A model generated the notes under the pieces. That model saw only the letters and a program-made list of their open reading frames with translations, was not told the origin of the DNA and did not search any database. Source: a virus (lineage: Duplodnaviria; Caudoviricetes). From it: a stretch of DNA of 48,720 nt. Position numbers and translations under genes: made by a program. Shown here one piece after another: positions 1 to 48,720 of this stretch; position 1 is the first letter of the stretch; each line of letters opens with the position of its first letter. The stretch is taken from IMG/VR virus record IMGVR_UViG_3300027255_000007, positions 1 to 48,720 of that record; one strand, written 5' to 3'.

Positions 1-1344
1 ATAGACCCTAAGTTAGGTAACACAGGTGAGTGGTTAGATGCACGAGTTGTATGGCAGAAATTGTTAGAGACTCGTTTCCGTACTGGTGAACCATACCTTA
101 ACTTCATTGATACAGCTAACAAAGCTCTACCACAAGCCCTTAAAGATAAGGGTTTAAAAATTCGTGGTAGTAACCTATGCAATGAGATTCATCTACCTAC
201 AAGTGATGAGCGTACAGCGGTATGCTGCCTAAGCTCTGTCAACCTAGAGTACTATGATGAATGGGTTGATACCTCAATGGTAGCAGACTTAATCACGATG
301 CTTGATAACGTTATTGAGTACTTCATTGATAACTGTCCTGACTCTTTATCTCGTGCTAAGTTCTCAGCATCAATGGAACGCTCATTAGGTTTAGGTGCTA
401 TGGGGTTCCATAGTTATTTACAGCGTCATAATGTAGCTCTTGAAAGTCAAAAGGCACAGATGCTTAACATCGATATGTTTGCATACATCAAAGCAGTAGC
501 TAAGATGCAGAGCAAATTGCTTGCTGTTGACCGTGGCGAGGCACCTGATATGGTGGGTACAGGTATGCGTAATGCGCATCTACTAGCTATCGCTCCTAAC
601 GCCTCTAGTAGTATCCTGCTGAGTACTTCCCCTAGCATTGAGCCTAGTAAAGCTAATGCCTATACCCATCGTACTCGTGCTGGATCTTTCTTAGTAAAGA
701 ATCCCTACCTTGAACAATACCTATCTTCTATTGGTCGTAATACTAATGACGTTTGGACTGACATTATTACTAATAGTGGTTCTGTACAACATCTGGATTT
801 TATTGAGGACTCTGTTAAAGAAGTATATAAGACTAGCTTTGAGCTTGATCAAATGAGTATCATCAAGCTTGCTGGTGATCGTCAACATTATATATGTCAA
901 GGTCAATCTGTTAACTTGTTCTTCCCTGCTGGAGTTGATCGAGCATATGTTAACAAGGTACACATTGCTGCCTGGACACACGGTCTCAAGGGTCTATACT
1001 ACCTACGTACTGAGGCTAAAGAACGTGCAGAGAATGTCTCTAAGAAGGTTGAGGCTAACAAACTAACGGAAGAGAAAAGGACAATCATCTATGGTAAAGA
1101 ATTTTGCCCGTACTGTAAGATGGCTAAGGATTTACTGGAGAGTAAAGGTATTGAATACGAATATATTGATATTGAATCTGAAGGTAAAACTGCTGCTGAG
1201 ATTACGGGACGTCCAGACGTTCGGACGGTACCTCAAATCTATCTGGAAGGACAATACGTAGGTGGATTTACAGAGCTACGTACTTACTTGTCTACACAAC
1301 CAACAACCCAAGAGACTGATGAATGTCTTGCTTGTGAAGGATAA
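1..1344 (+). CDS. nrdA: Class Ia ribonucleotide reductase alpha subunit (5'-truncated) with an internal C-terminal glutaredoxin domain
   Basis: Frame is open from base 1. Motifs SNLCNEI, AIAPNASSS, LKGLYYLRT and a C-terminal CLAC tail; CPYC/TVPQI/VGGF glutaredoxin motifs at ~1081-1290. Confidence 0.97.
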   Translation: MDPKLGNTGEWLDARVVWQKLLETRFRTGEPYLNFIDTANKALPQALKDKGLKIRGSNLCNEIHLPTSDERTAVCCLSSVNLEYYDEWVDTSMVADLITMLDNVIEYFIDNCPDSLSRAKFSASMERSLGLGAMGFHSYLQRHNVALESQKAQMLNIDMFAYIKAVAKMQSKLLAVDRGEAPDMVGTGMRNAHLLAIAPNASSSILLSTSPSIEPSKANAYTHRTRAGSFLVKNPYLEQYLSSIGRNTNDVWTDIITNSGSVQHLDFIEDSVKEVYKTSFELDQMSIIKLAGDRQHYICQGQSVNLFFPAGVDRAYVNKVHIAAWTHGLKGLYYLRTEAKERAENVSKKVEANKLTEEKRTIIYGKEFCPYCKMAKDLLESKGIEYEYIDIESEGKTAAEITGRPDVRTVPQIYLEGQYVGGFTELRTYLSTQPTTQETDECLACEG

Positions 1345-1346
1345 AC

Positions 1347-2309
1347 ATGTCGCTACTAGATTTTGCAAAGACCTATAAGCCATTCAACCATGAATGGGCT
1401 GTAGGTGTAACAAAGAAACATGAGGAAATTCATTGGGTTGAGGATGAAGCTGATCTTTCAGAAGATATTAATGACTGGAAGCTCAAGCTTAATCATGATG
1501 AGAAAGAGTTTATCACACACATTCTACGTTTGTTTACTCAAGGTGATGTACAAGTAGGTCAAAACTATTATGACTTCCTTATTCCTAAGTTTAAAAACAA
1601 TGAAGTACGAGTAATGCTAGGTTCATTTGCTAGCCGTGAAGGTACACATCAACGTGCGTATGCCTTGTTGAATGATACTTTAGGTTTACCCGATGAAGAG
1701 TATCATAAGTTCCTTGAGTATTCAGAGATGGCAGACAAGATTGAATTCATGTCTCAGTCAGATAACACTACCCAATCAGGTCTAGCGTTAGCACTAGCTA
1801 AGTCTGTATTCAATGAAGGTGTATCCTTGTTTGCTTCATTCGTTATGTTACTTAACCTGCAGCGCTTTGGTAAGATGAAGGGTATGGGTACAGTAGTTGA
1901 ATGGTCTATCCGTGATGAGACTGTACACGTAGAAGGTAACGCCAGATTGTTTAGGGAGTTCTGTAATGAGCATCCGAGAGTGGTTAATGACGAGTTCAAA
2001 GCTAAGATCTATCAGATTGCTAGGGATGTGGTGTCTCTTGAAGATAAGTTTATTGATCTTGCTTTTTCTAACTATACTATTGAAGGTATTACGAAGGAAG
2101 AAGTAAAGAAATATATACGTTATATTACTGATAGACGTCTTATTCAGTTAGGTCTGAAAACAAACTTTAAAGTTAAAGAGAACCCACTACCGTGGTTGGA
2201 CTGGGTACTTAATGGTGTATCTCATGATAACTTCTTTGAGAAGCGTGTCACAGAATACTCTGTTAACGGTATGGGTGGTGACTGGGGATGGAATACAGTC
2301 GGAGCCTAA
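1347..2309 (+). CDS. nrdB: Ribonucleotide reductase beta subunit
   Basis: Di-iron motifs EGTHQRAY, EGVSLF and DETVH; NFFEKRVTEY tail; directly follows nrdA. Confidence 0.97.
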   Translation: MSLLDFAKTYKPFNHEWAVGVTKKHEEIHWVEDEADLSEDINDWKLKLNHDEKEFITHILRLFTQGDVQVGQNYYDFLIPKFKNNEVRVMLGSFASREGTHQRAYALLNDTLGLPDEEYHKFLEYSEMADKIEFMSQSDNTTQSGLALALAKSVFNEGVSLFASFVMLLNLQRFGKMKGMGTVVEWSIRDETVHVEGNARLFREFCNEHPRVVNDEFKAKIYQIARDVVSLEDKFIDLAFSNYTIEGITKEEVKKYIRYITDRRLIQLGLKTNFKVKENPLPWLDWVLNGVSHDNFFEKRVTEYSVNGMGGDWGWNTVGA

Positions 2310-2316
2310 TAGAGAA
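2300..2316 (+). promoter_or_regulatory. Putative phage RNAP promoter (CGGAGCCTAATAGAGAA) upstream of the tRNA
   Basis: Matches the five-copy motif and overlaps the nrdB stop. Confidence 0.55.
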
Positions 2317-2400
2317 TCCCACTACCTTAGGGCGTTGTAGTACGTAAAGCTATCAGAAAGCTCATCGCTGTAAAGGATGAGCACCATTTATATTTAGTAT

Positions 2401-2477
2401 ATGCCTATAGCTCAGTTGGATAGAGCAACAGCCTTCTAAGCTGTGGGTCGGGAGTTCGAATCTCTCTGGGCATACCA
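2401..2477 (+). tRNA. tRNA-Arg, anticodon UCU
   Basis: Acceptor stem ATGCCTA/TGGGCAT followed by A-CCA; D arm GCTC..GAGC; anticodon stem ACAGC/GCTGT with loop CT-TCT-AA; T loop GTTCGAA. Confidence 0.95.
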
Positions 2478-2505
2478 TTAACCCTAAGGTGGGAAAGGAA
2501 TAATA

Positions 2506-2661
2506 ATGATTAATAAATATGATATAGAAGATATGTGCGATGAAGTAGCTGATCACGAGACTGAGCATAAGACTGTTAAGCCTACAACTATGTATAGTTA
2601 TATTGATATGGACATCTATTCTGATAACTTTAAATTTGAATTCAGTATGGAGATCGAATAA
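2506..2661 (+). CDS. Small acidic hypothetical protein (51 aa)
   Basis: AAGGA RBS; MINKYDIEDM...; stop overlaps the next ATG. Not in the ORF track. Confidence 0.6.
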   Translation: MINKYDIEDMCDEVADHETEHKTVKPTTMYSYIDMDIYSDNFKFEFSMEIE

Positions 2662-2771
2662 TGTCAGGTAAAGGTAGCGGTCGTAGACCTACTGATGAAC
2701 AAAAATATCAGGATAATTATGATAAGATCTTCGGTAAGAAAAAAGAACAAGACAAGAAGGAAAGTAAATGA
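2661..2771 (+). CDS. Small phage protein (36 aa, MSGKGSGRRP...NYDKIF)
   Basis: GGAG RBS; translationally coupled on both sides; GKGS-RP/NYDxIF pattern is common in aquatic phages. Confidence 0.7.
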   Translation: MSGKGSGRRPTDEQKYQDNYDKIFGKKKEQDKKESK

Positions 2772-3199
2772 GTTGTGAAACAAAGCTTAAATGTTTAATT
2801 GCCGATAACTTCTTTGGTTATTTTAAGGCGCATGTGTACCATGCCAATGTACAGGATAAAGACTTCAATCAATACCACGAGTTTTTTGGTGAAATTTATG
2901 AGTACCTTTATAGTAATCATGACGGCTTGTTAGAACAGTTACGCCAGATGGATGTAATGGTACCGCTATCTATTAAAGACTATATTGATAATTCAGTTAT
3001 TGATTTAGGTAATAAAGATAAAGACGTAGGTGATATGCTCCAGTCACTATTATCTACTATTGAAATGCTTATTAAAATTTCTCAAGGTCTTTATGAAGAA
3101 TCTGGTAAAGAAGGCCACGGTGGTCTAGAAACTTTTATAGGTGACTACCTAGTTGGCGTTACCAAATTACGTTGGAAGGTTAAATCATGTCTCAAATAA
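2768..3199 (+). CDS. dps: Dps/ferritin-like protein
   Basis: HANV..FNQYHEFFGEIY..DGLLEQLR resembles the Dps HWNV/H..F...Y/D..AER ferroxidase pattern; 143 aa. Confidence 0.8.
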   Translation: MSCETKLKCLIADNFFGYFKAHVYHANVQDKDFNQYHEFFGEIYEYLYSNHDGLLEQLRQMDVMVPLSIKDYIDNSVIDLGNKDKDVGDMLQSLLSTIEMLIKISQGLYEESGKEGHGGLETFIGDYLVGVTKLRWKVKSCLK

Positions 3200-21523: not shown

Positions 21524-22207
21524 TTATACATTTTCTTTAACAAACATTTTAACTAGAGCGCCAACAATATCTGAACGCACAACATCGTCAACTGTAAATT
21601 CAATTACTGGAATCTGAATATTATTTTTATCGCATAATTTAGTAAACTTAGTAATACCGTTTCCATTACTAACATCGGACTGAGACGCATCTCCCGATAA
21701 AATCATTTTAGAGTTTTCACCTAAACGAGTAGTAATAGCTTTAATTTCATCAAATGTTAAGTTTTGAGATTCATCGATGATTACTAAAGAGTTTTCAAAT
21801 GACCTACCTCTAATGGTTTCTAAGGGTTGCATTTGAATTGTTTTCTTACTTACTAAATAATCATATTTAGTTTTACCAAATCTATTTTCTAATACTGAAG
21901 TAATAGGCATTAACCAAGGTGATAGCTTTTCCTCAACAGTCCCTGGAAATGCACCTAATGTTCTACCCGTAGGCACATTAGCTCTACTTAATATAATATA
22001 ATCGTAACCACCTTTTAAAAACATTTGGGCTACTTTACTAGCTGAACAAAATGTTTTACCAGTTCCAGCTGGCCCTAACGCTACTGTAATTTCAAATTCA
22101 CTTATAGCATCTAGAAGCATCTGTTGGTTACGAGTCTTTGGTTGGAAATGAAATGACCTATCTTCTCTAACCATACGTTCATTGCGTTGTTTGTTGTTTC
22201 TTTTCAA
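21524..22207 (-). CDS. phoH: PhoH-family ATPase
   Basis: GPAGTGKT, RGRSF, IIDESQN, GDASQSD and DVVRS motifs. Confidence 0.95.
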   Translation of the reverse strand: MKRNNKQRNERMVREDRSFHFQPKTRNQQMLLDAISEFEITVALGPAGTGKTFCSASKVAQMFLKGGYDYIILSRANVPTGRTLGAFPGTVEEKLSPWLMPITSVLENRFGKTKYDYLVSKKTIQMQPLETIRGRSFENSLVIIDESQNLTFDEIKAITTRLGENSKMILSGDASQSDVSNGNGITKFTKLCDKNNIQIPVIEFTVDDVVRSDIVGALVKMFVKENV

Positions 22208-22211
22208 GATT

Positions 22212-22228
22212 ATTCCTATTAGGTACCG
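22212..22228 (-). promoter_or_regulatory. Putative phage promoter (CGGTACCTAATAGGAAT) upstream of phoH
   Basis: Intergenic copy of the repeated motif, oriented into the late genes. Confidence 0.7.
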
Positions 22229-22230
22229 CC

Positions 22231-22692
22231 TCAGAATACGATGCCAGGCTTATAATGCGTCTTACCTGACTCCTTAGTTGCTGTCAACTCTTGGCCTTTA
22301 AGGTCATTCTCGTTGTAAGCCACATGAACCCAACCACTGTCAGGCACTCCAGGCTTATAAAACTCTAGTATTAACTGTGTAAATTTAAAATTATCTTTAA
22401 TGTATAATGCTAAATCTTTATTATCAACTCCAGGAATTTCAATATCAGCAGCGTAACCGAAACAATGGTGACTAGTTTTACTGCCACCTACTTTGGAATT
22501 AACTTCTGGGCTACGATACCCACTAGAAATAATTACTGGACCAAATTTATCTCTTAATGGTTGTAGAATATTATCAACTAATCTTTGTAAATTAGCTGTA
22601 ACGGTTTCATCAGGTGTATTATCTATACCGTAGCGTATAGCTAAATCTGATTTTGTAAGTTCTTCTAAACTAAAATTTTTACTTAGTTTCAT
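22231..22692 (-). CDS. Endolysin, peptidase M15A
   Basis: LSKNFSL.E, SGYRS, SHH..G.AAD and WVHV zinc-binding motifs. Confidence 0.9.
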   Translation of the reverse strand: MKLSKNFSLEELTKSDLAIRYGIDNTPDETVTANLQRLVDNILQPLRDKFGPVIISSGYRSPEVNSKVGGSKTSHHCFGYAADIEIPGVDNKDLALYIKDNFKFTQLILEFYKPGVPDSGWVHVAYNENDLKGQELTATKESGKTHYKPGIVF

Positions 22693-39456: not shown

Positions 39457-41088
39457 TTATAGCCAGTTAGTTTCTATCTGTTGAAAGTTGCCCATCTTCT
39501 GTGTAAAGGGTACATTATTATTCTTTAATCTATCACCATGTGTTCTAATAACTTCAAGGGCAATAGCTAGAGCAATAACAGTATCGTCATTATGACCAAC
39601 GATAGCATTAGTTTTTCCTGAGTCATCTGCCACATAATTCATTAGCTCCCCAATAACTAGTCTAGAAGGAATCCAGATATCCTCATTATCGATAGCATTC
39701 TTTAAGAATCCAATAATAGCTGGCTTAGATGCTGAGGTAGTCCTCCATCCAATCCTGTTACCTTCTTCTTTAGAAACATTAGCTAACTTAGTCTGATAGT
39801 ACATATTAACGTACTGCATCTGTGTAAGCCTATTTAATGTAGCAATACCCATAGAGTTAGACTCTACAGCTAAAAGAGCATTATTATAGTACCTACCTAA
39901 GTAAAACAAAAGATCACCAAACTTAGAGGGATCTATCATATTGTTTCTATATACAGCACATACTTCTCTATCTGCATTCATAACAACTGCAGCAGAAGAA
40001 TCTTTACCTACTCCTAAAGATACATCAGCACCAATAGTAAAGGAATCTCCAAACATAGGATACTTAAAGATCTCTATTGATCCCCTATCCTTATCTTCCA
40101 TCATATTAGACTCGAAGTTAAACTCCTTAGAAGCTAATATAGGTTGGGGTACTAGAGCAGCTAGCTTCTCAATATTAAATACGTTAGCCCCTGAAACAAT
40201 AAATGCTTCATCAGCTGTAGCGGGGTACTCCTGACGGAATTTATCCTCACCACCCTCAGCTATCTTTAGTCTCCTCCAGTAAAGTTGATCATCATCTAAC
40301 TTAAACCTAGTAACTAATATCTCTTCTTTATCGGTTCTTTCAAAGCCCTCTGGGGCTTCTCTACGGTATTCTTCCATAAGAAACCAAGGAACAAAAATAG
40401 GAATATACTCATTCTCTCCTTTAACGGCACCCTGCCATAACCTATGAAAGGCATTCCCTACTCCATTAGCAGTACTCTCTAGAATTACTTCTGTACCTTT
40501 AGCTTGTGAAATACCTTGGAACATACCCGCGAGAATCTTCTCATCGTGAGTCCAGAAAGCCACCTCAGAAAGATGCGCAATAGTCGGTGTAGTTCCTCGG
40601 CCTGCCTCCGGCGAGCCAGCTGTATATAATCTGTAACCTGAATCGTTGTGTTCAAACATGATCTCCTTAGCATTAGACTTCTTGAACTTAGGTTTAAACT
40701 GCTCAGGCATATTATCGATAGTATTCCTCGACATGCTAAACAAAGCATCCGAGGTAGCTGTATCATGAGCCATAACAACTGACTTGTTATAGGCATTAAA
40801 ATAACTCTTCCAGAAGACTCTACCAGTAGCATAGGTACTTAAACCCATCTGCCGTGCCTTCAATATAATCGCTCTAACTCTACCAGTTTCTTTCAACTGT
40901 TTCTCAATTTGTTCATTGACAATACTTTGAGCACTATTAAACGTAAATGGCTGAAAGCCCTGCGAAGAATCTTTAGGTAAGATCTTAATCTGTTCTTTAG
41001 CAAATAACTCAAAGTTATCCTTGTATTCAGCTAGCTTTTCTCTTCTCTTGAGTTCTCTCAGCGCTTCTAGCTTCTCTTTATTATTCAT
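39457..41088 (-). CDS. terL: Terminase large subunit
   Basis: ILKARQMGLST (Walker A), HLSEVAFW (Walker B), ESTANG, GADVSLG and HNDDTVIALA nuclease motifs. Confidence 0.96.
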   Translation of the reverse strand: MNNKEKLEALRELKRREKLAEYKDNFELFAKEQIKILPKDSSQGFQPFTFNSAQSIVNEQIEKQLKETGRVRAIILKARQMGLSTYATGRVFWKSYFNAYNKSVVMAHDTATSDALFSMSRNTIDNMPEQFKPKFKKSNAKEIMFEHNDSGYRLYTAGSPEAGRGTTPTIAHLSEVAFWTHDEKILAGMFQGISQAKGTEVILESTANGVGNAFHRLWQGAVKGENEYIPIFVPWFLMEEYRREAPEGFERTDKEEILVTRFKLDDDQLYWRRLKIAEGGEDKFRQEYPATADEAFIVSGANVFNIEKLAALVPQPILASKEFNFESNMMEDKDRGSIEIFKYPMFGDSFTIGADVSLGVGKDSSAAVVMNADREVCAVYRNNMIDPSKFGDLLFYLGRYYNNALLAVESNSMGIATLNRLTQMQYVNMYYQTKLANVSKEEGNRIGWRTTSASKPAIIGFLKNAIDNEDIWIPSRLVIGELMNYVADDSGKTNAIVGHNDDTVIALAIALEVIRTHGDRLKNNNVPFTQKMGNFQQIETNWL

Positions 41089-41121
41089 TACTTGTGTCCT
41101 ATAAAATACATAAAATGTATA

Positions 41122-41138
41122 TTTCCTATTAGGAACCG
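41122..41138 (-). promoter_or_regulatory. Putative phage promoter (CGGTTCCTAATAGGAAA) heading the late operon
   Basis: Motif copy ~35 nt upstream of terL. Confidence 0.7.
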
Positions 41139-41184
41139 ACTAATAACTCTTATTACATTTCTAAAAGTAATATTTTGTATTAGG

Positions 41185-41245
41185 TTTTGGGTAACCCCTA
41201 GGATTTTTTGGGGGAGGGTTTTTGGGGGAATGTTTGGGGGGTACC
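41185..41245 (+). repeat. T-run/G-run repeats (TTTGGGGG x3) at the late/early boundary; probable genome end or early promoter
   Basis: G runs at 41189, 41210, 41216, 41224 and 41236. Confidence 0.55.
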
Positions 41246-41395
41246 TCTCTCTGTGTCAAAGAATCAGGGTGTTGGTTTGGGTTCGCCCCTTCCTCGTTCG
41301 TGTCCCCCCTCTTCTGGTGGGTCGCTCTCCTGCGTGTTGCCGTCTTGCCCTGCGGTCCCGCGCTTCTTCTTCCTCTGTGGCTTCTGGAGTTCGTT

Positions 41396-41743
41396 GTGTC
41401 TCTCTCTTCTTTTGTTTCTTCTCTTCCCGTCCTTGGTGCTGCTTCCTCTGTCGCTGCTCCTCGTCCTTCCTCGCTGTTGGCTTCCGTTCCTCGTGCTCGG
41501 TGGTCTGCTCCCGTGTCGGTTGTGGCTGTGTCGGTGTCTGGTGTGGACTCGGTCTCTGTGGTCTGCTCGGACGGTCGTGTCCGTGTTTGTCGTCCTTCGT
41601 ACGCCTCTCGTGCCTTGGGTCGTTCGGTCTCGGTGGACCTTGTGTTCTCTCGTCTGTCGGCTCGTGTTGGGTCGTCTGTTCGCTTCTGTGCTGCGTTCGG
41701 TTACTCGCCTGATACCTGGTTCGTTGGTGTTGAAGCTGCTTAA
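41396..41743 (+). CDS. First early gene, adenine-depleted (115 aa), paralog of 43135..43488
   Basis: GGAG at 41386-41389 and a GTG start; 11 A in 348 nt; full-length alignment with 43135..43488. Confidence 0.8.
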   Translation: MSLSSFVSSLPVLGAASSVAAPRPSSLLASVPRARWSAPVSVVAVSVSGVDSVSVVCSDGRVRVCRPSYASRALGRSVSVDLVFSRLSARVGSSVRFCAAFGYSPDTWFVGVEAA

Positions 41744-41768
41744 CTCTTTTTCTTTCTTGGAGGTTCCT

Positions 41769-41936
41769 ATGTCTTTCTTCTTTCGCTTCTTCGGTCTTCT
41801 TGGCTTGCTCTCTATCGGGCTTGCTTTCCTTGGTGCGTTGTTTATGTTCCCGCCTGTGGAGTGCTTGTTGCTCCTCGTCTGTGGTGGGTTGTTAACCTTC
41901 GCTTGTTCTTTCGGTCTTAACTCTCTGGAGATGTAA
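41769..41936 (+). CDS. Small two-TM membrane protein, adenine-depleted (55 aa)
   Basis: GGAGG RBS and ATG at 41769; MSFFFRFFGLLGLL...; 12 A in 168 nt. Confidence 0.7.
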   Translation: MSFFFRFFGLLGLLSIGLAFLGALFMFPPVECLLLLVCGGLLTFACSFGLNSLEM

Positions 41937-41937
41937 A

Positions 41938-42432
41938 ATGAAACGCTTTAACACTGTTAACCTTCTTGTTCGTAAACGCGTTGACATCCGTGATGGTGTA
42001 ATGGTCTCACATCCTTGTGGGTCTTATGCGCCTGTCTCTTACCTTCGGTCTCGTCCTAAGCTCTCTCGGGCTGTTGCTGGTGATCTCCAGCAAGACGCTT
42101 CTTTCTCTGGTGACTTTGAATCTGAGATTCTTGATATGGCTCTTCGTGGCTGTGATATTCCTAACTCTGTGTACAGGCACTTAAAGTGGTGGCGGTCTAA
42201 GGGCTGTCCTCACTGGATGTCTGGTCGTGAACCTTCTGCTCCTCTTGTTGCTTGGTGGGATACTTACTCTTGGGTGTTCCTTCCTACCTTGAGCAGAAAG
42301 AAAAGCTCCGATTCAGACGCTGAGTACCGTGATGCTGTTGCTTATTACCGCGACATTGCCTTCCATAACCTTGCTGAGGCTAGGAGGCTCACTCGTGAGC
42401 AGTATGACTATTCTATTGACGCACCTTTCTAA
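41938..42432 (+). CDS. Early hypothetical protein
   Basis: GGAG RBS; 164 aa; ~18% A. Confidence 0.75.
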   Translation: MKRFNTVNLLVRKRVDIRDGVMVSHPCGSYAPVSYLRSRPKLSRAVAGDLQQDASFSGDFESEILDMALRGCDIPNSVYRHLKWWRSKGCPHWMSGREPSAPLVAWWDTYSWVFLPTLSRKKSSDSDAEYRDAVAYYRDIAFHNLAEARRLTREQYDYSIDAPF

Positions 42433-42442
42433 GGAAATTACT

Positions 42443-42775
42443 ATGACAAACGGACTTGACACTATTCACCAAGACATTACGACCTTGACCCTTCATGGGT
42501 ACGACCAAGACGTTGTTGATCGTCTTCAGGGATGTGACCTTCTAATTGCTTGGAGGGTTTCTTGTGACACTTTACAGGAGAGCGTTGACTACGCAATAGA
42601 GTCTTACACTGTTGACAATCCTCTTGTCACCGAGATGGCTCTGCAAAAGCTGCTTAATGCTGCTAGGATTAATTGTGAACTCTCTAGGTTCTTGGATGAC
42701 GATGACCCTGGTATGCGTAATGCCACAATGGACCAGATCAATGAGGGTTTGAATAACTACTACGGTAAGCCGTAA
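42443..42775 (+). CDS. Acidic early hypothetical protein
   Basis: TAAGGA RBS; start at MTNGLD; Asp/Glu-rich. Confidence 0.7.
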   Translation: MTNGLDTIHQDITTLTLHGYDQDVVDRLQGCDLLIAWRVSCDTLQESVDYAIESYTVDNPLVTEMALQKLLNAARINCELSRFLDDDDPGMRNATMDQINEGLNNYYGKP

Positions 42776-42864
42776 CAGTACTGCCCATAGGTCTCTACGG
42801 AGACCCTTGGAGAGCGCTGTGCTCGTCCCGTTCCTCAGGGGTTTCTGGGGTTAGGAGTTGTCAA

Positions 42865-43032
42865 ATGACAAACAAAAACTGGTGTGTGTGGTCTTGTGCC
42901 AATGGTCGTGAAGATGAGCTGTACGCTTCGGGCCTGTCTGAAGCTGACGCAGAGTTGGTTGCCACCGAGTGTAACATCGTTGCGGATGAGCTTGGTGAGC
43001 TTGTGGAGTTCCGTCCTGCTCCTGAACTCTAA
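42865..43032 (+). CDS. Small acidic early protein (55 aa)
   Basis: AGGAG RBS; MTNKNWCVWSC...PEL. Not in the ORF track. Confidence 0.7.
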   Translation: MTNKNWCVWSCANGREDELYASGLSEADAELVATECNIVADELGELVEFRPAPEL

Positions 43033-43134
43033 AGAGAGCTTTCCTAGTTGCATCCTTCAGGGTGCTTCTAAGAGGGTTTTCCTCTACACCGTTCCTATGC
43101 GGATCATAGGCTGTCATTACTCAAGGAGATTACA

Positions 43135-43488
43135 ATGACAACGGCTACTCTCAATCTTACCTCTGCTTTTACCTCTGCTTTCTCCTCTGCTGAGAACGCT
43201 CGACTAAGCAAGCTCTTCAGTTTGCCAGATGTTTCTGTGTCTGAACCAGTGACAATCAAGATCATCTTAAATCAAGGTGATCGTGTTGTTGCTATCTGTT
43301 CTGACTTTAGAACTAGGGCTGTTGTAACAAAGACGGTAAACAAAACTTTTAACACAACATTAACTACTAGCGATATATACAATCGCCTTGCTAAAAGGGT
43401 TAATCAAGAGGTAGTGTTCTTTGCTACTAGTGTTAATGGTCGCAAATACACAACTGACTCATACTTTGTTGGCTTGATTGCTATTTAA
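43135..43488 (+). CDS. Early hypothetical protein, paralog of the A-less gene
   Basis: AAGGAG RBS; shares the CSD.R.R, RL..RV and D..FVG motifs. Confidence 0.8.
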   Translation: MTTATLNLTSAFTSAFSSAENARLSKLFSLPDVSVSEPVTIKIILNQGDRVVAICSDFRTRAVVTKTVNKTFNTTLTTSDIYNRLAKRVNQEVVFFATSVNGRKYTTDSYFVGLIAI

Positions 43489-43498
43489 GGAGATAACC

Positions 43499-43606
43499 AT
43501 GTACTTCATCTACCATCGCTTGACACAAGTCTTAGTGGCGAAGACCACAAACCCAGCCATTCTCAACGAATACTCGCCTGAGAATTACCAAGTAATCATC
43601 TACTAA
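43499..43606 (+). CDS. Small early protein (35 aa)
   Basis: TAAGGAG RBS. Not in the ORF track. Confidence 0.6.
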   Translation: MYFIYHRLTQVLVAKTTNPAILNEYSPENYQVIIY

Positions 43607-43617
43607 GGAGAATACAG

Positions 43618-43770
43618 ATGAAACCACAACTCAAGTACATCTCAGGTAATCTCTACCTGATTTTCCCTTACGCTTCTGACGCAGATACCTGGGACTTCTG
43701 GGTAGGTACTGTATTACGCAGGAAGCGTATCAGTTTCGTTAACTACATGAACAGCTATAAGCTTATCTAA
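43618..43770 (+). CDS. Small early protein (50 aa)
   Basis: TAAGGAG RBS. Not in the ORF track. Confidence 0.6.
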   Translation: MKPQLKYISGNLYLIFPYASDADTWDFWVGTVLRRKRISFVNYMNSYKLI

Positions 43771-43781
43771 GGAGAATTGAC

Positions 43782-44024
43782 ATGTATATGCTGCTAACAC
43801 CACTAAATGAGGACAACGTAGGCACCTCGATTGAAGAAATCATTGAATCTCTCGCAGAATTTAGCTGTGAGGCAGTGCTTTCTGTAGATCATGCAGGAGT
43901 TCATAATGTATTTGCTACTGCAAAAGACCTAACTACCATCGAAAATCTCTGTAACACAGTAGATTTAGAGGGTTGTGTGGTAAATTACAACGAAGTGTAT
44001 GACCAAGAGGAGAAAGTACTATGA
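43782..44024 (+). CDS. Acidic hypothetical protein
   Basis: TAAGGAG RBS. Confidence 0.7.
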   Translation: MYMLLTPLNEDNVGTSIEEIIESLAEFSCEAVLSVDHAGVHNVFATAKDLTTIENLCNTVDLEGCVVNYNEVYDQEEKVL

Positions 44025-44269
44025 ATACCAAACAAACCTCAGCAATTCTCGATGCATATCTCGATTTAATTGGTGCATTTGAGGATACCTATGGACAACC
44101 TCATGACTGGACAGGTCATTTGCTAACAATAAAGAAGATGAGTGAGGTATTTAAAGAAGAACTTAGGGAAGCTGACCTAGATATCGACTACTTTGATGAT
44201 GTTATCAGGGGAAATGTTAAGCGATACAGAAGCCAAGAGTTGGCTCAAGAGGACATTTTAAGTAATTAA
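44021..44269 (+). CDS. Hypothetical protein
   Basis: ATGA overlap with the upstream gene. Confidence 0.7.
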   Translation: MNTKQTSAILDAYLDLIGAFEDTYGQPHDWTGHLLTIKKMSEVFKEELREADLDIDYFDDVIRGNVKRYRSQELAQEDILSN

Positions 44270-44431
44270 CATAGTACCTATATAGGTATACCCACAAAAG
44301 CCTCGTCTAGGTACCTTTCTGCTGCTCTCTGAGTATATTTCTCAGGGTATCGTAGCTGAGAATGTAGCTAGATGGAGGTTTTTGGGGTAAATCTTGTGCG
44401 GGTATCAAAAGTTAAACAAAGAAAGTAATAT

Positions 44432-44608
44432 ATGACTACAAAAACTCTCAAAGAACAGTTCACCTCAGAACTATTCGCCACCGACAAATCCCTAAACAAC
44501 TCTTACTGGAAACATGTAAAGAACCTCGACACACCAAATATTGTAACATTCCACATATTCCTCAACACACTCTTTAAAGAACTCGATAAGGAAAAGCTAT
44601 ATGACTAA
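44432..44608 (+). CDS. Small hypothetical protein (58 aa)
   Basis: MTTKTLKEQF...; overlaps the next start. Not in the ORF track. Confidence 0.55.
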   Translation: MTTKTLKEQFTSELFATDKSLNNSYWKHVKNLDTPNIVTFHIFLNTLFKELDKEKLYD

Positions 44609-44786
44609 AGAAGAACGAATACAAGAGCTACTTAGCGACACTACCCTGTATTGTTGCTATTGTGGTACTCAGAAACATTCCTTCCAATGTTGTGGTGAAG
44701 TACACTACCAAACGTTCTACGGAATGTCTGTTGAAGAGCAAAATGACTTTCTATCTTTTGAGGAGTTTGATAATGATCTACTTTGA
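44601..44786 (+). CDS. Small Cys-rich (zinc-binding-like) protein
   Basis: YCCYCG...CCGEVH motif; TAAGGA RBS. Confidence 0.7.
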   Translation: MTKEERIQELLSDTTLYCCYCGTQKHSFQCCGEVHYQTFYGMSVEEQNDFLSFEEFDNDLL

Positions 44787-45051
44787 TACTGCTTGGAGTC
44801 CACCTATGGCTATTTATAAAAGTAAGTATTCCGATTGTCCCTTCACATACATCGGTTATGATGCCTATGATAATAAAGTATTCTATCAAGGCAACTCCCT
44901 TGTATACCTAAAAGCCAATGCTGAAGCATATCTTAACAACCTATCTGATCATGAGTACAACGATGCAGAGATATATCTTATAGATATTGTTGCAGGTAAA
45001 CTTATAAATTTCAGGTTAAAATTCGGGCTAATTATCGAGGATAACGAATGA
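44773..45051 (+). CDS. Hypothetical protein beginning MIYFDTAWSPP
   Basis: GAGGAG RBS before the ATG at 44773. Confidence 0.65.
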   Translation: MIYFDTAWSPPMAIYKSKYSDCPFTYIGYDAYDNKVFYQGNSLVYLKANAEAYLNNLSDHEYNDAEIYLIDIVAGKLINFRLKFGLIIEDNE

Positions 45052-45257
45052 ACACTAAAGCCTATCCCATACTAACTCTCACACCTGTCATAGCTCCTTC
45101 CATATGGTACTCCAGAGATGTCTGGAATGTACCTAATGGACTGTACTATGATATCAAGTCCCTAGAGATGTACTTTGTGAGTAACAGTCGCTATGTACAG
45201 TCTGTAGGTTATTTACCATCAAACGCTATGGAGGTTCAAGATGAATTAGAAATCTAA
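45048..45257 (+). CDS. Hypothetical protein
   Basis: ATGA overlap; GAGG RBS. Confidence 0.6.
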   Translation: MNTKAYPILTLTPVIAPSIWYSRDVWNVPNGLYYDIKSLEMYFVSNSRYVQSVGYLPSNAMEVQDELEI

Positions 45258-45264
45258 CTTTAGC

Positions 45265-45281
45265 CGGTACCTAATAGGGAA
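45265..45281 (+). promoter_or_regulatory. Putative phage promoter (CGGTACCTAATAGGGAA)
   Basis: Consensus copy of the motif, intergenic. Confidence 0.7.
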
Positions 45282-45325
45282 TTTCCAGTAAATAGTATCA
45301 TATAGATATTATTAATAAAGAGAAA

Positions 45326-45360
45326 TAAAAAAGAGAATATCCTTAATGAATATTCTCTTT
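45326..45360. terminator. AT-rich hairpin between convergent units
   Basis: AAAGAGAATAT...ATATTCTCTTT inverted repeat. Confidence 0.6.
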
Positions 45361-45370
45361 AGAGTCTCTT

Positions 45371-45763
45371 TCAAGACTTATCTTCAAGACCTTCTTGAAA
45401 GATAATTCTCTGGAGTTCCTCATCCGACATATCAGAGACTCTAGTAGTAGTGTTCTGTTCAATACGTTGGAGTTTAGGTGCCTGATACTCTGCTAGCATA
45501 CTAGCATATCGAGCTGCATCTTCTAAGTTATCTTCTTGAAGAGCTTGTAGCATAGCCATCTTAATAACATCCAAGGAGGACATTTCTGGAAGTTCATCCA
45601 TGACTGCTTTAAAGTTCTTAGCAGAGAGTTTAAAAGCTTCTCTTGCTTGAATATTAGCTAGTCGTGATTGAACACTTTTCTTTTGGTTTTCCTTAGCTGT
45701 ATCTGAAGTAATTACTTTAAGATTAGCTAATGAGTTAACATTTCTTGCTTTTCCACCTGACAT
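45371..45763 (-). CDS. terS: Probable terminase small subunit
   Basis: NSLANLK N-terminus, EYQAPKL and C-terminal DMSDEEL; has its own copy of the promoter motif. Confidence 0.6.
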   Translation of the reverse strand: MSGGKARNVNSLANLKVITSDTAKENQKKSVQSRLANIQAREAFKLSAKNFKAVMDELPEMSSLDVIKMAMLQALQEDNLEDAARYASMLAEYQAPKLQRIEQNTTTRVSDMSDEELQRIIFQEGLEDKS

Positions 45764-45787
45764 ATGGTTCCTTTATAGTAGAGTAAA

Positions 45788-45804
45788 ATCTCTATTAGGT
45801 ACCA
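45788..45804 (-). promoter_or_regulatory. Putative phage promoter (TGGTACCTAATAGAGAT) upstream of the terS-like gene
   Basis: Motif copy ~25 nt before the start codon. Confidence 0.65.
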
Positions 45805-45848
45805 TCTAGCGAACTATTCGCTAACACTAAACTCTTAAAGGACACAAA

Positions 45849-46361
45849 ATGACTGATTCTATTAACAACACTGGTTCTAACGTTATGATCAAAGAAGTAA
45901 AGTTGTACTGGGCTAAACTCGATAAGCCAGTATCACCCTTCGGTACTGATCAATGGGAACTCTCTATTCAAGTTCCTAAGAAGCGTGAATCTGAACTTGC
46001 TAAGTTTGGTAAGGTGAAAGCTGGTTTTGAGCCTAATACTGTTGCAGTACAGCTCAAGAAGAAAGCTATTAAGAAAGATGGTTCTGAAGCTGCTAAGGTA
46101 CGAGTTGTAGATTCTTCTAAAAATCCTATCGACTCTAAGACCATCGGTAATGGTTCTGTTGGTAACGTTATTGTCTTCCAACAAGACTATCAGATCAAAG
46201 CACCTAACGGTAAAGTAACAAAAGAAGGTACCTCTACAATGTTGACTGCTGTACAAGTAGTTGACTTGATTAAGTACGAACCAAAGAACACTAACTTCGT
46301 AGACTTCGATGAAGAAATGCCTGAGGGTACTCCTGCTACTGAAGAAGAAGGAATGTTCTAA
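45849..46361 (+). CDS. Single-stranded DNA-binding protein (T7 gp2.5-like)
   Basis: WAKL..P, IGNGS.GNV and L.AVQVVDL..Y motifs; acidic tail ending in Phe. Confidence 0.85.
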   Translation: MTDSINNTGSNVMIKEVKLYWAKLDKPVSPFGTDQWELSIQVPKKRESELAKFGKVKAGFEPNTVAVQLKKKAIKKDGSEAAKVRVVDSSKNPIDSKTIGNGSVGNVIVFQQDYQIKAPNGKVTKEGTSTMLTAVQVVDLIKYEPKNTNFVDFDEEMPEGTPATEEEGMF

Positions 46362-46368
46362 ACACATA

Positions 46369-46412
46369 TCTCTATGAAGATTCCTAACGGATTCTTTGTA
46401 GAGATTTTTTAT
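46369..46412 (+). terminator. Long hairpin plus U tract after SSB (terminator or RNase III site)
   Basis: TCTCTATGAAGA...TCTTTGTAGAGA followed by TTTTTT. Confidence 0.6.
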
Positions 46413-46432
46413 TCAATCATAAAGGACACATA

Positions 46433-46627
46433 ATGACAAATCATCTCTCAGACTTTAAACAACGTAACAACAATTTTTATGTTGAGTCCATTAGTAATGC
46501 TTTCATTGTATCAATGGAAGTAGTTACAGAAAGCAGTGATTGGCTTACACTAAAAGTATCTGTACAAGATACTAACCAAGTTGCTATTCTGCTTAACGAG
46601 TATTTCATGCTAAAAGAAAGGAACTAA
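46433..46627 (+). CDS. Hypothetical protein
   Basis: AAAGGA RBS. Confidence 0.65.
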   Translation: MTNHLSDFKQRNNNFYVESISNAFIVSMEVVTESSDWLTLKVSVQDTNQVAILLNEYFMLKERN

Positions 46628-46629
46628 CC

Positions 46630-46794
46630 ATGAGTGTCATGAGTGATCTACATCTGCAAATTCATGAGCTATACAATGCTGGTGTTATACCAGAAGATAT
46701 TGCCTATGAACTCGATATTACTACAAACTGGGTACACGATGCCTTATCTGTTGTAATGTTTGTTGATATGTTAGAAGAGGAATATAATGATTAA
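46630..46794 (+). CDS. Small HTH-like protein (54 aa)
   Basis: ELYNAG..PEDIAYELDITTNWV pattern. Not in the ORF track. Confidence 0.55.
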   Translation: MSVMSDLHLQIHELYNAGVIPEDIAYELDITTNWVHDALSVVMFVDMLEEEYND

Positions 46795-47197
46795 GCGTAG
46801 AACTATCTACCTTGCAGGTCCAATGGAGCATGTATCTTCTGATGCTGCTTCTGGTTGGCGTAACACTGCTAAATCTCTGCTAAAAGATCACTATGATATC
46901 CTCGATCCATGTCGTAGACTACATAACTTCGAAAAGCGTTACATGAAACGTATCTTCGAGTTAGACCTACGAGATATTCGGGAAGCAGATATCTTATTAG
47001 TAAACCTTAATGACCCTAAACTAGCTAAACACGGTACTGCTATGGAAGTATTCTATGCCTCACATACACTAGGTAAACCTGTTGTAGCTTTCAAAGCTGA
47101 GGATGATCATATCCATCCTTTCTTTGAGTCATTAATTACTGAATGGCGATCTACCGTAGATAAAGCTTGTGAAACACTTATTGAGGAATACCTATGA
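46787..47197 (+). CDS. Nucleoside 2-deoxyribosyltransferase / nucleotide N-glycosidase-like protein
   Basis: IYLAGPM..WR, D...I.EADILL and GTAMEV.YA...KPV motifs. Confidence 0.85.
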   Translation: MIKRRTIYLAGPMEHVSSDAASGWRNTAKSLLKDHYDILDPCRRLHNFEKRYMKRIFELDLRDIREADILLVNLNDPKLAKHGTAMEVFYASHTLGKPVVAFKAEDDHIHPFFESLITEWRSTVDKACETLIEEYL

Positions 47198-47280
47198 AAG
47201 TATTGATAGTAGTACTGTCGTTAATATCATTAAAAATGATGCTTGCAATAATCTTCTCTAAAAAGAAACTAAAACTTTAA
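47194..47280 (+). CDS. 28-aa hydrophobic peptide
   Basis: ATGA overlap; GAGG RBS; TM segment followed by a Lys tail. Confidence 0.45.
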   Translation: MKVLIVVLSLISLKMMLAIIFSKKKLKL

Positions 47281-47290
47281 AGGAAATAAA

Positions 47291-47884
47291 ATGCCTAATT
47301 GGTGTGCAAACGCAGTAGTTATTACAGCCACAGAGCATGAAAGTGCTCAAATGATTCGTAGACTTGATACCCACCTTAAAGAAGGAGGTGGTCTAATGTC
47401 TTTCTTTATTCCAATCCCGCCAGAACTAAACGATCCACGTACTGGTTCATTCGGTGGTGAAGATGCAGATGAAAAGAATGCGCTAAGAGAATCTTTGCTA
47501 GAAAAATACGGTCATTCAGGTTGGTACGACTGGTGTTTATCAAAATGGGGAACCAAGTGGGATGCTCAATCAGATGATATGTTTTTCTCTATTGATGGTG
47601 ATAGTATGGAAATCTACTTTGATACTGCTTGGAGTCCCCCGATAAAATTCTATACAGAACTCTTTGAACGTTTTAACTTTAAGGTTAATGCCACGTTTGT
47701 AGAACAAGGTGTTAACTATATCGGTTACTACGTTAACGGTGACTATCAAGAAGAAGATTTTATGTCTGATGAACTCGACTATGATGATGATGACTACTAC
47801 GAAAAGATGGATGAACGTTTAGAAAGTTACTTTGAAAATACAAACTATACTCATCCCGCAATACCAAACCACACAGGAGGTTGA
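47291..47884 (+). CDS. DUF1281/YubB ferredoxin-like protein
   Basis: MPNWC.N, WYDW...WGTKWD and FDTAWSPP motifs. Confidence 0.85.
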   Translation: MPNWCANAVVITATEHESAQMIRRLDTHLKEGGGLMSFFIPIPPELNDPRTGSFGGEDADEKNALRESLLEKYGHSGWYDWCLSKWGTKWDAQSDDMFFSIDGDSMEIYFDTAWSPPIKFYTELFERFNFKVNATFVEQGVNYIGYYVNGDYQEEDFMSDELDYDDDDYYEKMDERLESYFENTNYTHPAIPNHTGG

Positions 47885-47885
47885 T

Positions 47886-48146
47886 ATGCCTTATATCACT
47901 AAACAACAACGCTGGGATGTTAACGTTGATTACGCTCACCGTATGCCTAATGACTCGGGTGAGCTTAACTATATCCTGACTACAGTCTGCTTAGACTATC
48001 TTGCGCATAAAGGAGAACGATATGTAACTATGAACGATGTAGTCGGTGCCTTAGAGAGTTGTAAACTCGAAATGTACCGCCGATTAGTTTCACCGTATGA
48101 AGACTCTAAAGTAAAGGAAAATGGCGATGTCTACACCTCAAACTGA
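47886..48146 (+). CDS. Conserved phage protein (DUF6899-like)
   Basis: MPYI..GELNY..GALE..KLE.YRR..PYED.K..ENGDV; AGGAGG RBS. Confidence 0.75.
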   Translation: MPYITKQQRWDVNVDYAHRMPNDSGELNYILTTVCLDYLAHKGERYVTMNDVVGALESCKLEMYRRLVSPYEDSKVKENGDVYTSN

Positions 48147-48516
48147 TTTCTATGATAAAATGGCCTCTAGTAAATGGCTTAAGTCTGCTAACAAGTGGTA
48201 CAATCAACCTATTATTGAAGAGGAGGAAGAAGAGGTAATGCGTAGTATTGAATACCTTAATGAGCTTACTAAGGATCAAATCAACCCTACACACTATAAA
48301 GGTGTAGCTGCTGGTAAACAATATATTGAGTTAATGCAAGATCTTCTTGAAGGATACTCAGGAGTTGAGGCTCATTTGCTAGGTCAAATCTATAAGTACT
48401 CTATGCGACTTGGAAAGAAAGATTCCAAAGAGCAAGATGCTACTAAGATCTCTTGGTATGCACAATGCCTAGCTAACTACTATCGCACTGGTAGAGTCGA
48501 AACTGGCTGGAAATAA
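48121..48516 (+). CDS. DUF3310 (T7 gp1.7/SaV-like) protein
   Basis: INPTHY, KY..R.GKK and QD..K..WY motifs; exact start uncertain. Confidence 0.8.
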   Translation: MAMSTPQTDFYDKMASSKWLKSANKWYNQPIIEEEEEEVMRSIEYLNELTKDQINPTHYKGVAAGKQYIELMQDLLEGYSGVEAHLLGQIYKYSMRLGKKDSKEQDATKISWYAQCLANYYRTGRVETGWK

Positions 48517-48526
48517 GGAGTAAGTT

Positions 48527-48720
48527 ATGAAGGTGTTTGTGTACTTCAACCTACACAAGCGCCTCTTTAGTGTTAAATCACTTGAGGGCGCTAATAAAGG
48601 TAAGGTTATCGGTCATAGTCATTCAATCGTGCTAGGTCATACTCAGTTTAAAGTATCTGAGGCTGGTCGTCAACGAGTACTGCGTGAAAGGAAAAAGAAC
48701 GTACACGCTGGTGTAGCTGG
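48527..48720 (+). CDS. Conserved phage hypothetical protein (3'-truncated)
   Basis: TAAGGAG RBS; VYFNLHK..FS...VSEAGRQRVLRE.KKNVHA. Confidence 0.75.
   Translation, partial: MKVFVYFNLHKRLFSVKSLEGANKGKVIGHSHSIVLGHTQFKVSEAGRQRVLRERKKNVHAGVA

Follow-up and report, generated by a model that had tools for sequence, protein, structure and literature searches.

Why should one strand of a phage genome do almost entirely without adenine just where its early genes begin? The question is raised by a 48,720-nt stretch of viral DNA (hereafter the window), which covers the greater part of a podovirus genome. Its late arm, on the minus strand, encodes terminase, portal, capsid and three large virion proteins; its early arm is on the plus strand. 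An earlier note on this DNA had counted a single A in the 280 nt from 41267 to 41546, and our count was the same; the lone A, at 41388, lies within a GGAG ribosome site, and the binomial probability of such a count at the window's 28.5% A is ~2e-39. Over the whole tract (41267-41936, plus strand) there are 25 A in 670 nt, and A-free runs reach 158, 121, 65 and 44 nt, compared with at most 37 nt elsewhere in the window. The first gene, ORF1 (41396-41743, plus strand; 115 aa; 3% A), does start with GTG and have 11 A in 348 nt, and it lacks Lys, Asn, Ile, Gln and His, as had been noted, as well as internal Met. The accompanying claim that these A occur only where the codon cannot avoid them was mostly right: they lie in four Asp, two Tyr and one Thr codons and in GAA and TAA, the latter pair holding the 2 of the 11 that are avoidable. 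The next gene (41769-41936), described as ~7% A, contains 12 A over its 168 nt (7.1%). The tract is A-poor all the way to 41936, the limit given earlier, but this limit was too short for synonymous sites, at which avoidance of A extends to about 43030. A occupies 0/96 fourfold-degenerate sites in ORF1, 4/85, 6/45 and 2/28 in the genes of the ramp that follows (41938-43032, plus strand), and 14/62 and higher fractions beyond.

The onset of A exclusion is sharp, at a conserved motif adjoining the terminase gene, and the effect fades over about 1.8 kb. Other bases shift as well: G+C is 56% in the tract compared with 40% in the window, T climbs to 41% and is the base at 63% of fourfold sites, and third-position G rises from 7% to 23%. 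Several simple sources of such a skew were considered and rejected. Nitrogen saving is contradicted by G going up rather than down, and avoidance of phosphorothioate sites by the abundance of GTTC and TGG. The ordering of A before T had no clear special effect (observed/expected at short gaps 0.77-0.87 within the initial 600 nt and 0.84-0.99 beyond). Adenine mutagenesis of the type driven by diversity-generating retroelements (DGRs) was likewise discarded, as no reverse transcriptase was found among 57 window ORFs, 45 ORFs of the relative G004 or the annotation of the cultured roseophage CRP-7, and a template repeat is absent from 40900-48720.

An assembly artefact was ruled out, since IMG/VR contigs, contigs from DNA runs and CRP-7 all show the tract. 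The earlier note had left open whether the sequence was genuine, and an independent IMG/VR contig with one mismatch over 29,273 nt indicates that it is; contigs of 4/4 DNA runs, three of which may represent the sample of origin (X8 carries no such mark), also cover the tract with no difference listed. Contigs from the RNA run X19 were rejected as evidence of transcription, as they cover ORF1 and terminase alike.

Relatives with normal A content in the orthologous region would have been another way out, but relatives proved largely A-poor there too. The best 80 of 224 terminase relatives were used; upstream DNA was present for 75 of them, and for 65 it extended over 700 nt or more. We found a 200-nt window with no more than 4 A in 38/65 IMG/VR loci, no more than 10 A in 52/65 and no more than 20 A in 62/65, the 65 loci including near-duplicates. 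Among 32 non-redundant loci, drawn from 52 that had both the boundary motif and sufficient sequence, A averaged 25% in the 150 nt upstream of the motif (n = 27) and 4%, 8%, 15%, 19%, 22%, 26%, 27% and 31% in successive 150-nt intervals downstream, returning to about 32% by 1.2 kb past the motif. Depletion is thus limited to the early side of the divergence point, and its depth differs between lineages. CRP-7, the closest cultured phage to the window (terminase 59% and portal 53% identical), shows A-free stretches at this junction that are 224, 168 and 104 nt long. There an unannotated plus-strand ORF of 128 aa (MK613349 57608-57994; L001:27609-27995) is A-free and preceded by a GGGG ribosome site; its match to the ORF1 family (85%, E 7e-6) may owe something to composition bias, and the GenBank gene gp72 was called across it on the minus strand. 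The terminase, portal, virion proteins and two-arm layout common to the window and its relatives place them all among CRP-7-type podoviruses. A general trait of podovirus ends was rejected as an explanation, with 0/9 positive among end stretches of T7, LUZ24, phiEco32, ICBM1 and IME234 and four whole genomes; the T7 left end has no A-free run longer than 24 nt in 3.2 kb.

The tract abuts the divergence point of the two arms. The terminase large subunit gene (39457-41088, minus strand; PHROG 2, E 8e-30; 59% identical to CRP-7), which had no match among prokaryote genomes, is the divergent first gene of the late arm and is faced by a predicted late promoter for a T7-like RNA polymerase (41126-41142, minus strand) that points away from the tract. 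This 17-nt motif recurs at 45261-45277(+), 45792-45808(-), 22216-22232(-), 2296(+) and 48040(+) and in the relative G002; at 3 mismatches it was not found in G004 or CRP-7. From its recurrence, the motif is likely to be the promoter of the phage's own T7-like RNA polymerase, the gene for which lies mid-genome in three near-complete relatives and CRP-7, a part of the genome that falls outside the window and is incomplete in G005. No copy is directed into the tract, and because the first rightward one is at 45261, the first 4 kb likely need the host polymerase. Backward transcription across the tract was rejected, as the promoter at 41142 faces away and that at 45808 meets a terminator-like site at 45360-45330.

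Between the late promoter and the tract lies a G+T-rich candidate terminal-repeat or packaging region (41150-41258, limits approximate; no strand assigned) carrying GGGGGTACC (41237-41245) and TCTCTCTGTGTC (41246-41257), both of which also occur in the T7 record, within its first 160 nt. In the records of LUZ24 and ICBM1, distant relatives by portal, the terminal repeat precedes the early genes. By analogy, from this layout and these T7-like words, the tract would be at a genome end, predicted to be the entering one. The most conserved block in 15 aligned loci is the boundary motif TGTGTC-AAAGAATCA (41252-41266, plus strand), a candidate for either a host-polymerase -10 element (AAGAAT, 41259-41264) or a cut site; a sigma-70 scan called no promoter at this motif.

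The remainder of the window and its relatives yielded observations apart from the tract. A lone minus-strand gene (45371-45763) with a weak PADLOC match to PDC-M07A (E 1e-4) sits amid the early arm (interval 45330-45808), between two phage promoters that face each other and with the terminator-like site nearby. A 32-nt direct repeat (44776-44807 and 47612-47643; 94%) is common to two early genes, each with a match to PHROG 12644, which are likely another paralog pair. Window positions 61-3199 and 21524-22207 encode a class Ia ribonucleotide reductase, a ferritin/Dps-like protein and PhoH; G004 and CRP-7 have a B12-dependent reductase in place of the class Ia enzyme. The contig L117:1-7277 (G001) extends the early arm by 7,083 nt with genes for dCMP deaminase, a MazG-like protein, DNA polymerase A, a 5'-3' exonuclease and a GIY-YIG protein.

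What does the A-poor DNA encode? Ten amino acids can be encoded without A, and ORF1 is composed largely of these. It consists of a low-complexity N-terminal tail and a basic domain (about residues 27-115). Its AlphaFold model (pLDDT 83, above 90 in the domain) is a five-stranded barrel with a helix between strands 3 and 4, the arrangement of an OB fold. The best structural match had Z 7.6 with an rmsd of 3.1 over 86 residues and OB folds account for the majority of the top 50, with no match reaching Z 8 and no Foldseek match at E 0.001; from the model, ORF1 is predicted to be an OB-fold protein. Sequence searches of ORF1 gave no match in Pfam, PHROG or PDB, those of ORF1 and its paralog none in ESM Atlas, and those of ORF1, the paralog and the tract region none in 50,697 phage records. 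A pN/pS of 0.09-0.46 in 7 pairwise comparisons shows that ORF1 is under purifying selection. SSB and PriB matched the model at Z 5-6.3, below carbohydrate-binding OB folds. Bacterial and T7-type SSBs carry an acidic C-terminal tail; ORF1 has none and stops a few residues past strand 5. A DNA mimic like Ocr was rejected for ORF1, a beta barrel with a core net charge of +5, compared with -28 for T7 Ocr.

A second copy of the fold lies 1.7 kb downstream of ORF1 (43135-43488, plus strand; 117 aa; hhalign 96%, E 2e-9, 85 columns). It is 28% A, with A at 14/62 fourfold sites, and 47% of its residues require A compared with 9% in ORF1; the normal A content of this paralog therefore argues that place and lineage, not the fold, govern A exclusion. 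A profile search from ORF1 found 41 proteins, many of ordinary composition. The fetched loci contain 56 distinct OB copies, of which 17 are A-poor, and every one of these is found 193-568 nt from the boundary motif; the remaining 39 have 18-34% A. Five of the latter are also within 540 nt of the motif. Such lineage differences include four copies near 500 nt with normal A and the first-position copy of L033 with 21% A. A-poor and A-normal members interleave in a tree of the family, with weak support. The loci of three distant OB homologues (P0049, P0066, P0071) were not found. Separately, L037 and L038 have OB copies 1,150 and 1,800 nt from the motif with fourfold-site A of 1/47 and 0/43, a longer ramp, and L043:4025-4660 (minus strand) holds a 212-aa ORF of about 1% A with A-free runs of 242 and 195 nt that matched neither the OB profile nor any homologue.

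Behind ORF1, ORF2 (41769-41936, plus strand) encodes a 55-aa hydrophobic, likely membrane protein with homologues in 6 other loci. ORF3 (41938-42432, plus strand; 164 aa), the first ramp gene, is mostly helical, and its model (pLDDT 70) resembled only a common helical arrangement, with no clear fold match. The ramp continues with ORF4 (42443-42775, plus strand; net charge -12) and ORF5 (42865-43032, plus strand; net charge -9). Together with CRP-7 gp01 (-13), these are small acidic proteins encoded directly behind the tract and are candidate DNA mimics, although none of the three matched a known family. No early ORF matched an anti-restriction family in searches whose Ocr component had no positive control. 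Between ORF4 and ORF5, a stem-loop with GAGAGCG..TGCTC (42775-42860, plus strand), a word that recurs behind the first genes in G002-G005, is a candidate RNA processing site that may resemble the RNase III sites of T7.

Upstream of ORF1, the untranslated leader (41267-41395, plus strand) is adenine-free except for the one A in its ribosome site GGAG (41386-41389), and 55 distinct leaders together have 253 A in 6,492 nt. It contains an RNA hairpin (41332-41363, within a structured element of 41332-41382, plus strand) with a loop able to pair with 41376-41382 near the ribosome site. Thirteen leaders have in common a hairpin of 9 pairs, 6 of which show two-sided changes; its G-U pairs are valid only on the plus strand, and 93% of alignment cells are paired compared with 28-56% when the alignment is slid, controls that lean in favor of a structure that was derived from the same sequences used to test it. 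Judged by this covariation, the leader is an RNA element on the plus strand, perhaps one resembling the T4 gene 32 operator. In 40/55 leaders a loop word is complementary to a word just 5' of the ribosome site, which makes a pseudoknot, a switch or an alternative fold a candidate; this third helix had no two-sided change in the counted 13-sequence alignment, and the leader had no Rfam match. The structure explains 52/78 GCGC in the tracts. The A-free leader of L016 contains a tandem duplication of ~60 nt, located roughly 370-530 nt upstream of where the terminase gene starts.

The suggestion that A is selected against at the start of the early arm gained support from fourfold sites, conservation and recoded starts and ribosome sites. 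In 23 distinct ORF1-family genes, A was found at 8/1,618 fourfold sites, compared with 1,071/3,637 in late genes, and the A-containing codons AGY for Ser and AGR for Arg were used 0/328 and 1/240 times. Ribosome sites are GGGG in 14/28 cases and starts are GTG or TTG in 14/28, and the slot can hold small hydrophobic genes unrelated to these, which are A-poor as well. At 125 of 153 variable sites A is absent from the alleles, with C, G and T interchanging freely. The exclusion thus reaches silent sites, ribosome sites, start codons and the choice of amino acids, independent of the protein fold. We conclude from these sequence patterns that it is selected and acts on the nucleic acid rather than through a need of the protein.

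What could impose such selection, or imitate it? A local strand-specific mutational process conferring no benefit, such as deamination of A to G in exposed single-stranded DNA, would account for the many A-to-G changes (ATG to GTG, GGAG to GGGG, Ile to Val, TAA to TGA in 17/23 stops) and the rise in third-position G from 7% to 23%, and deaminase-fold genes are present. However, in Ala, Pro and Arg codons the lost A became mostly T (GCG 0.16 and CCG 0.11, far under the late A+G share), changes from Lys to Arg (CGN) and from AGY to TCN take several steps, and A that is needed, in three Asp codons and one Tyr codon, is invariant. Because A is replaced by T as well as G, and most variable sites lack an A allele, selection fits better, and we consider mutation very unlikely. 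Evasion of AT-binding silencers through high G+C and loss of TpA, or codon choice that maximizes expression, would suit the G+C content of the tract and the preference for GAC over GAT (84:23) and TAC over TAT (45:3), but not the raised T or the substitution of amino acids. Moreover, GTG and TTG starts and GGGG sites are not optimal for expression. This account is scarcely credible. A thymine-free template for a host polymerase that pulls the DNA in, lacking thymine photoproducts, modified thymine and internal -10 elements, is improbable, though it has in its favor the marine source runs, the absence of a rightward phage promoter before 45261 and the presence of dCMP-deaminase, MazG and nucleoside-deoxyribosyltransferase genes. 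The ultraviolet version proposed in the earlier note is contradicted by the avoidance of A even between purines, where a template T is harmless (2/603 compared with 248/850 in late genes), and by GG (template CC) occurring at 0.87 of expectation and so not being depleted. As for modified bases, a thymidine-modification family is absent from the 45 early-arm ORFs of G004, and the DNA assembles out of ordinary libraries. PurZ was found in 0/5 records and 0/4 near-complete relatives (positive control 14/14), and a 2-aminoadenine (Z-genome) phage was thereby rejected.

The first RNA, rather than the DNA, may be the target, which is the chief competitor of the reading favored below, though an unlikely one. 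An A-free transcript would resist adenine-directed attack, by A-specific RNases, CmdT-like ADP-ribosylation or tRNA nucleases acting on A-containing codons, or could be produced with ATP in short supply or poisoned. Against the second form, ATP usually makes up the largest NTP pool, and translation requires it in any case. The idea of a virion polymerase making this transcript, another part of the earlier proposal, gained no support: three near-complete relatives and CRP-7 have an ordinary T7-like RNA polymerase gene, and the large virion proteins (1372 and 1428 aa) had no polymerase motif, by a simple motif search that is a weak test, and no Pfam or PDB sequence match. The onset at a candidate -10 element, the covarying structure of the leader on the plus strand, the A-free state of a non-coding leader and its ribosome site, and the lack of a tract-specific loss of G/C palindromes all favor an RNA-level cause. 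So does the finding, in the available text of one preprint, that CmdT modifies adenine in single-stranded mRNA (bioRxiv 2024.02.24.581662), but the same text has CmdT triggered by new capsid protein, not at entry. Furthermore, 232/381 residual A follow G, the CmdT context, though Asp codons force that; attack on tRNA leaves the A-free leader unexplained; and the fade crosses gene boundaries and the candidate processing hairpin. In a broader form, the A-free leader and first mRNA would answer a standing, undescribed adenine-directed barrier of marine bacteria that targets the first transcript or its synthesis, and several unrelated phage groups would have converged on a three-letter "boot" transcript encoding folded proteins of a ten-residue alphabet; we hold this to be rather unlikely.

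We favor the view that exclusion of A from one strand is a specificity-independent shield of the predicted first-entering DNA against adenine-based restriction, with a probability of roughly 0.45. The stealth leader of the earlier note is the best single model only in this adenine-specific form, as G/C-only palindromes are not purged further than in other early genes. In CRP-7-like podoviruses, the shield would extend over the leader and the first of the early genes. Bipartite type I sites and A/T-containing palindromes need A on each strand, and an A-less strand would offer none; asymmetric A-containing sites could occur in a single orientation, which would defeat enzymes requiring a head-to-head pair. 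The sense strand would be the one to lose its A, since a sense strand free of T lacks start and stop codons and F, L, I, V, M, W, C and Y. The tract end may enter first and slowly and be transcribed by the host polymerase, and its products or those of the ramp (the basic OB protein, the acidic ORF4 and ORF5) could then protect the remaining DNA, the shield lasting until early proteins exist. Stable cytosine-type palindromes would instead be purged word by word, genome-wide. Consistent with this model, the tract has few sites of the kind that require A on both strands: A..T pairs 7-10 nt apart number 2, 8 and 22 per 200 nt compared with 72, and 4-nt palindromes 10.5 per kb compared with 57. In the parts of the Murciavirus report available to us, only early-injected type I motifs confer sensitivity in this marine T7-like phage, and the type I (Mme2I) motif has A on both strands (PMC12455610). 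The accessible text of PMC6286503 likewise gives type I and III enzymes a need for head-to-head sites and fast specificity change, with no genome-wide avoidance of type I sites found, and that of PMC8919816 assigns 57-63% of predicted marine methyltransferases to m6A. In whole records of G003, G004, G002 and CRP-7 we also observed lineage-specific palindrome loss (CCGG 0 and CGCG 0 in G004; GGCC 1 and CGCG 1 in G003; CGCG 1 in CRP-7), with no avoidance of GANTC. From the near-absence of such palindromes, the clade is under restriction-type pressure, and the loss is possibly a readout of host restriction systems.

Several results count against a restriction shield. The portions of PMC8919816 at hand report type I motifs as undetected in pelagic genomes and term type I systems scarce there, which argues against it. 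The 150 nt upstream of the motif, which would enter first if they are a terminal repeat, have 25% A; depth depends on lineage, as with the first-position copy of L033; and ORF1, being basic, is unlike a DNA mimic. Onset at the candidate -10 element and the structured leader fit an RNA-level cause equally well. G/C-only palindromes are not scarcer in the tract, with observed/expected of 0.57 in 14 A-poor ORFs (three of them maybe mis-framed or over-long) and 0.53 in 184 normal early ORFs, over all eight words with a synonymous-codon shuffle; per kb they are more frequent in the window's tract (9 in 627 nt, 427 in 48.7 kb). An apparent tract-specific loss, six words being 2-3x scarcer (0.15 compared with 0.34-0.36), was rejected, as the words were chosen post hoc and the stricter eight-word shuffle gave no excess. 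Residual A still yields GTAC (15 observed, 6.6 expected) and GANTC (11 observed, 10.6 expected), and enzymes needing one site on one strand are not evaded by A exclusion. The family searches of the early ORFs also turned up no anti-restriction protein.

If the shield reading is true, the phage evades every type I and III specificity together by omitting one base from one strand, which would provide a design rule for DNA transfer into restriction-rich bacteria and a compositional mark of the entering end in uncultured phages. If the RNA reading is true, the tract points to an unknown adenine-directed defense. Either way, ORF1 and the paralog at 43135 are a natural experiment, one fold with 9% or 47% A-requiring residues. 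A-free genes are readily miscalled, given their GTG starts, GGGG ribosome sites and, in CRP-7, assignment to the wrong strand. With CRP-7 in culture, the question is open to experiment.

The earlier statement that no equivalent had been described held in a search of open-licence literature, which gave no account of an adenine-free phage leader. CRP-7 shares with the window the two-arm layout and, at the corresponding junction, A-free runs together with an OB-family ORF, but has about 3 kb of extra small genes separating terminase from tract; the accessible text of its description (PMC6918029) does not use the word adenine. ORF1 shares five-strand topology (Z 5-7.6), a basic surface and conserved aromatic residues with OB proteins such as SSB/PriB, the RecG wedge and AB5 toxin B subunits; unlike them, it occurs in several divergent copies per genome. 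Early single-strand binders include T4 gene 32, the leader of which has a pseudoknot, and N4 gp2. T7 is reportedly protected from EcoP15I by keeping type III sites in one orientation on one strand. The tract is similar in allowing asymmetric A-containing sites in a single orientation (the principle is given in the available part of PMC6286503), but is local rather than genome-wide and independent of any enzyme's word. In conjugative plasmids the leading region, too, is first-entering DNA with raised G+C and fewer palindromes; it differs in entering as a single strand and, in the text of the preprint available to us (bioRxiv 2025.04.03.647016), no single-base exclusion is mentioned and no general depletion of type II motifs is reported. 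A further parallel is the early-injected region of Murciavirus, where selection is focused on the short, variable early-gene end of a phage with staged entry, as is predicted here, and sites are allowed elsewhere; the available text of PMC12455610 also cites T5 first-step-transfer DNA as an example of leading-region site avoidance. Particular motifs are lost in Murciavirus and T5, whereas here a whole base is dropped from one strand and the proteins are recoded. By this analogy, the tract most plausibly works like an extreme, whole-base form of a leading-region restriction shield.
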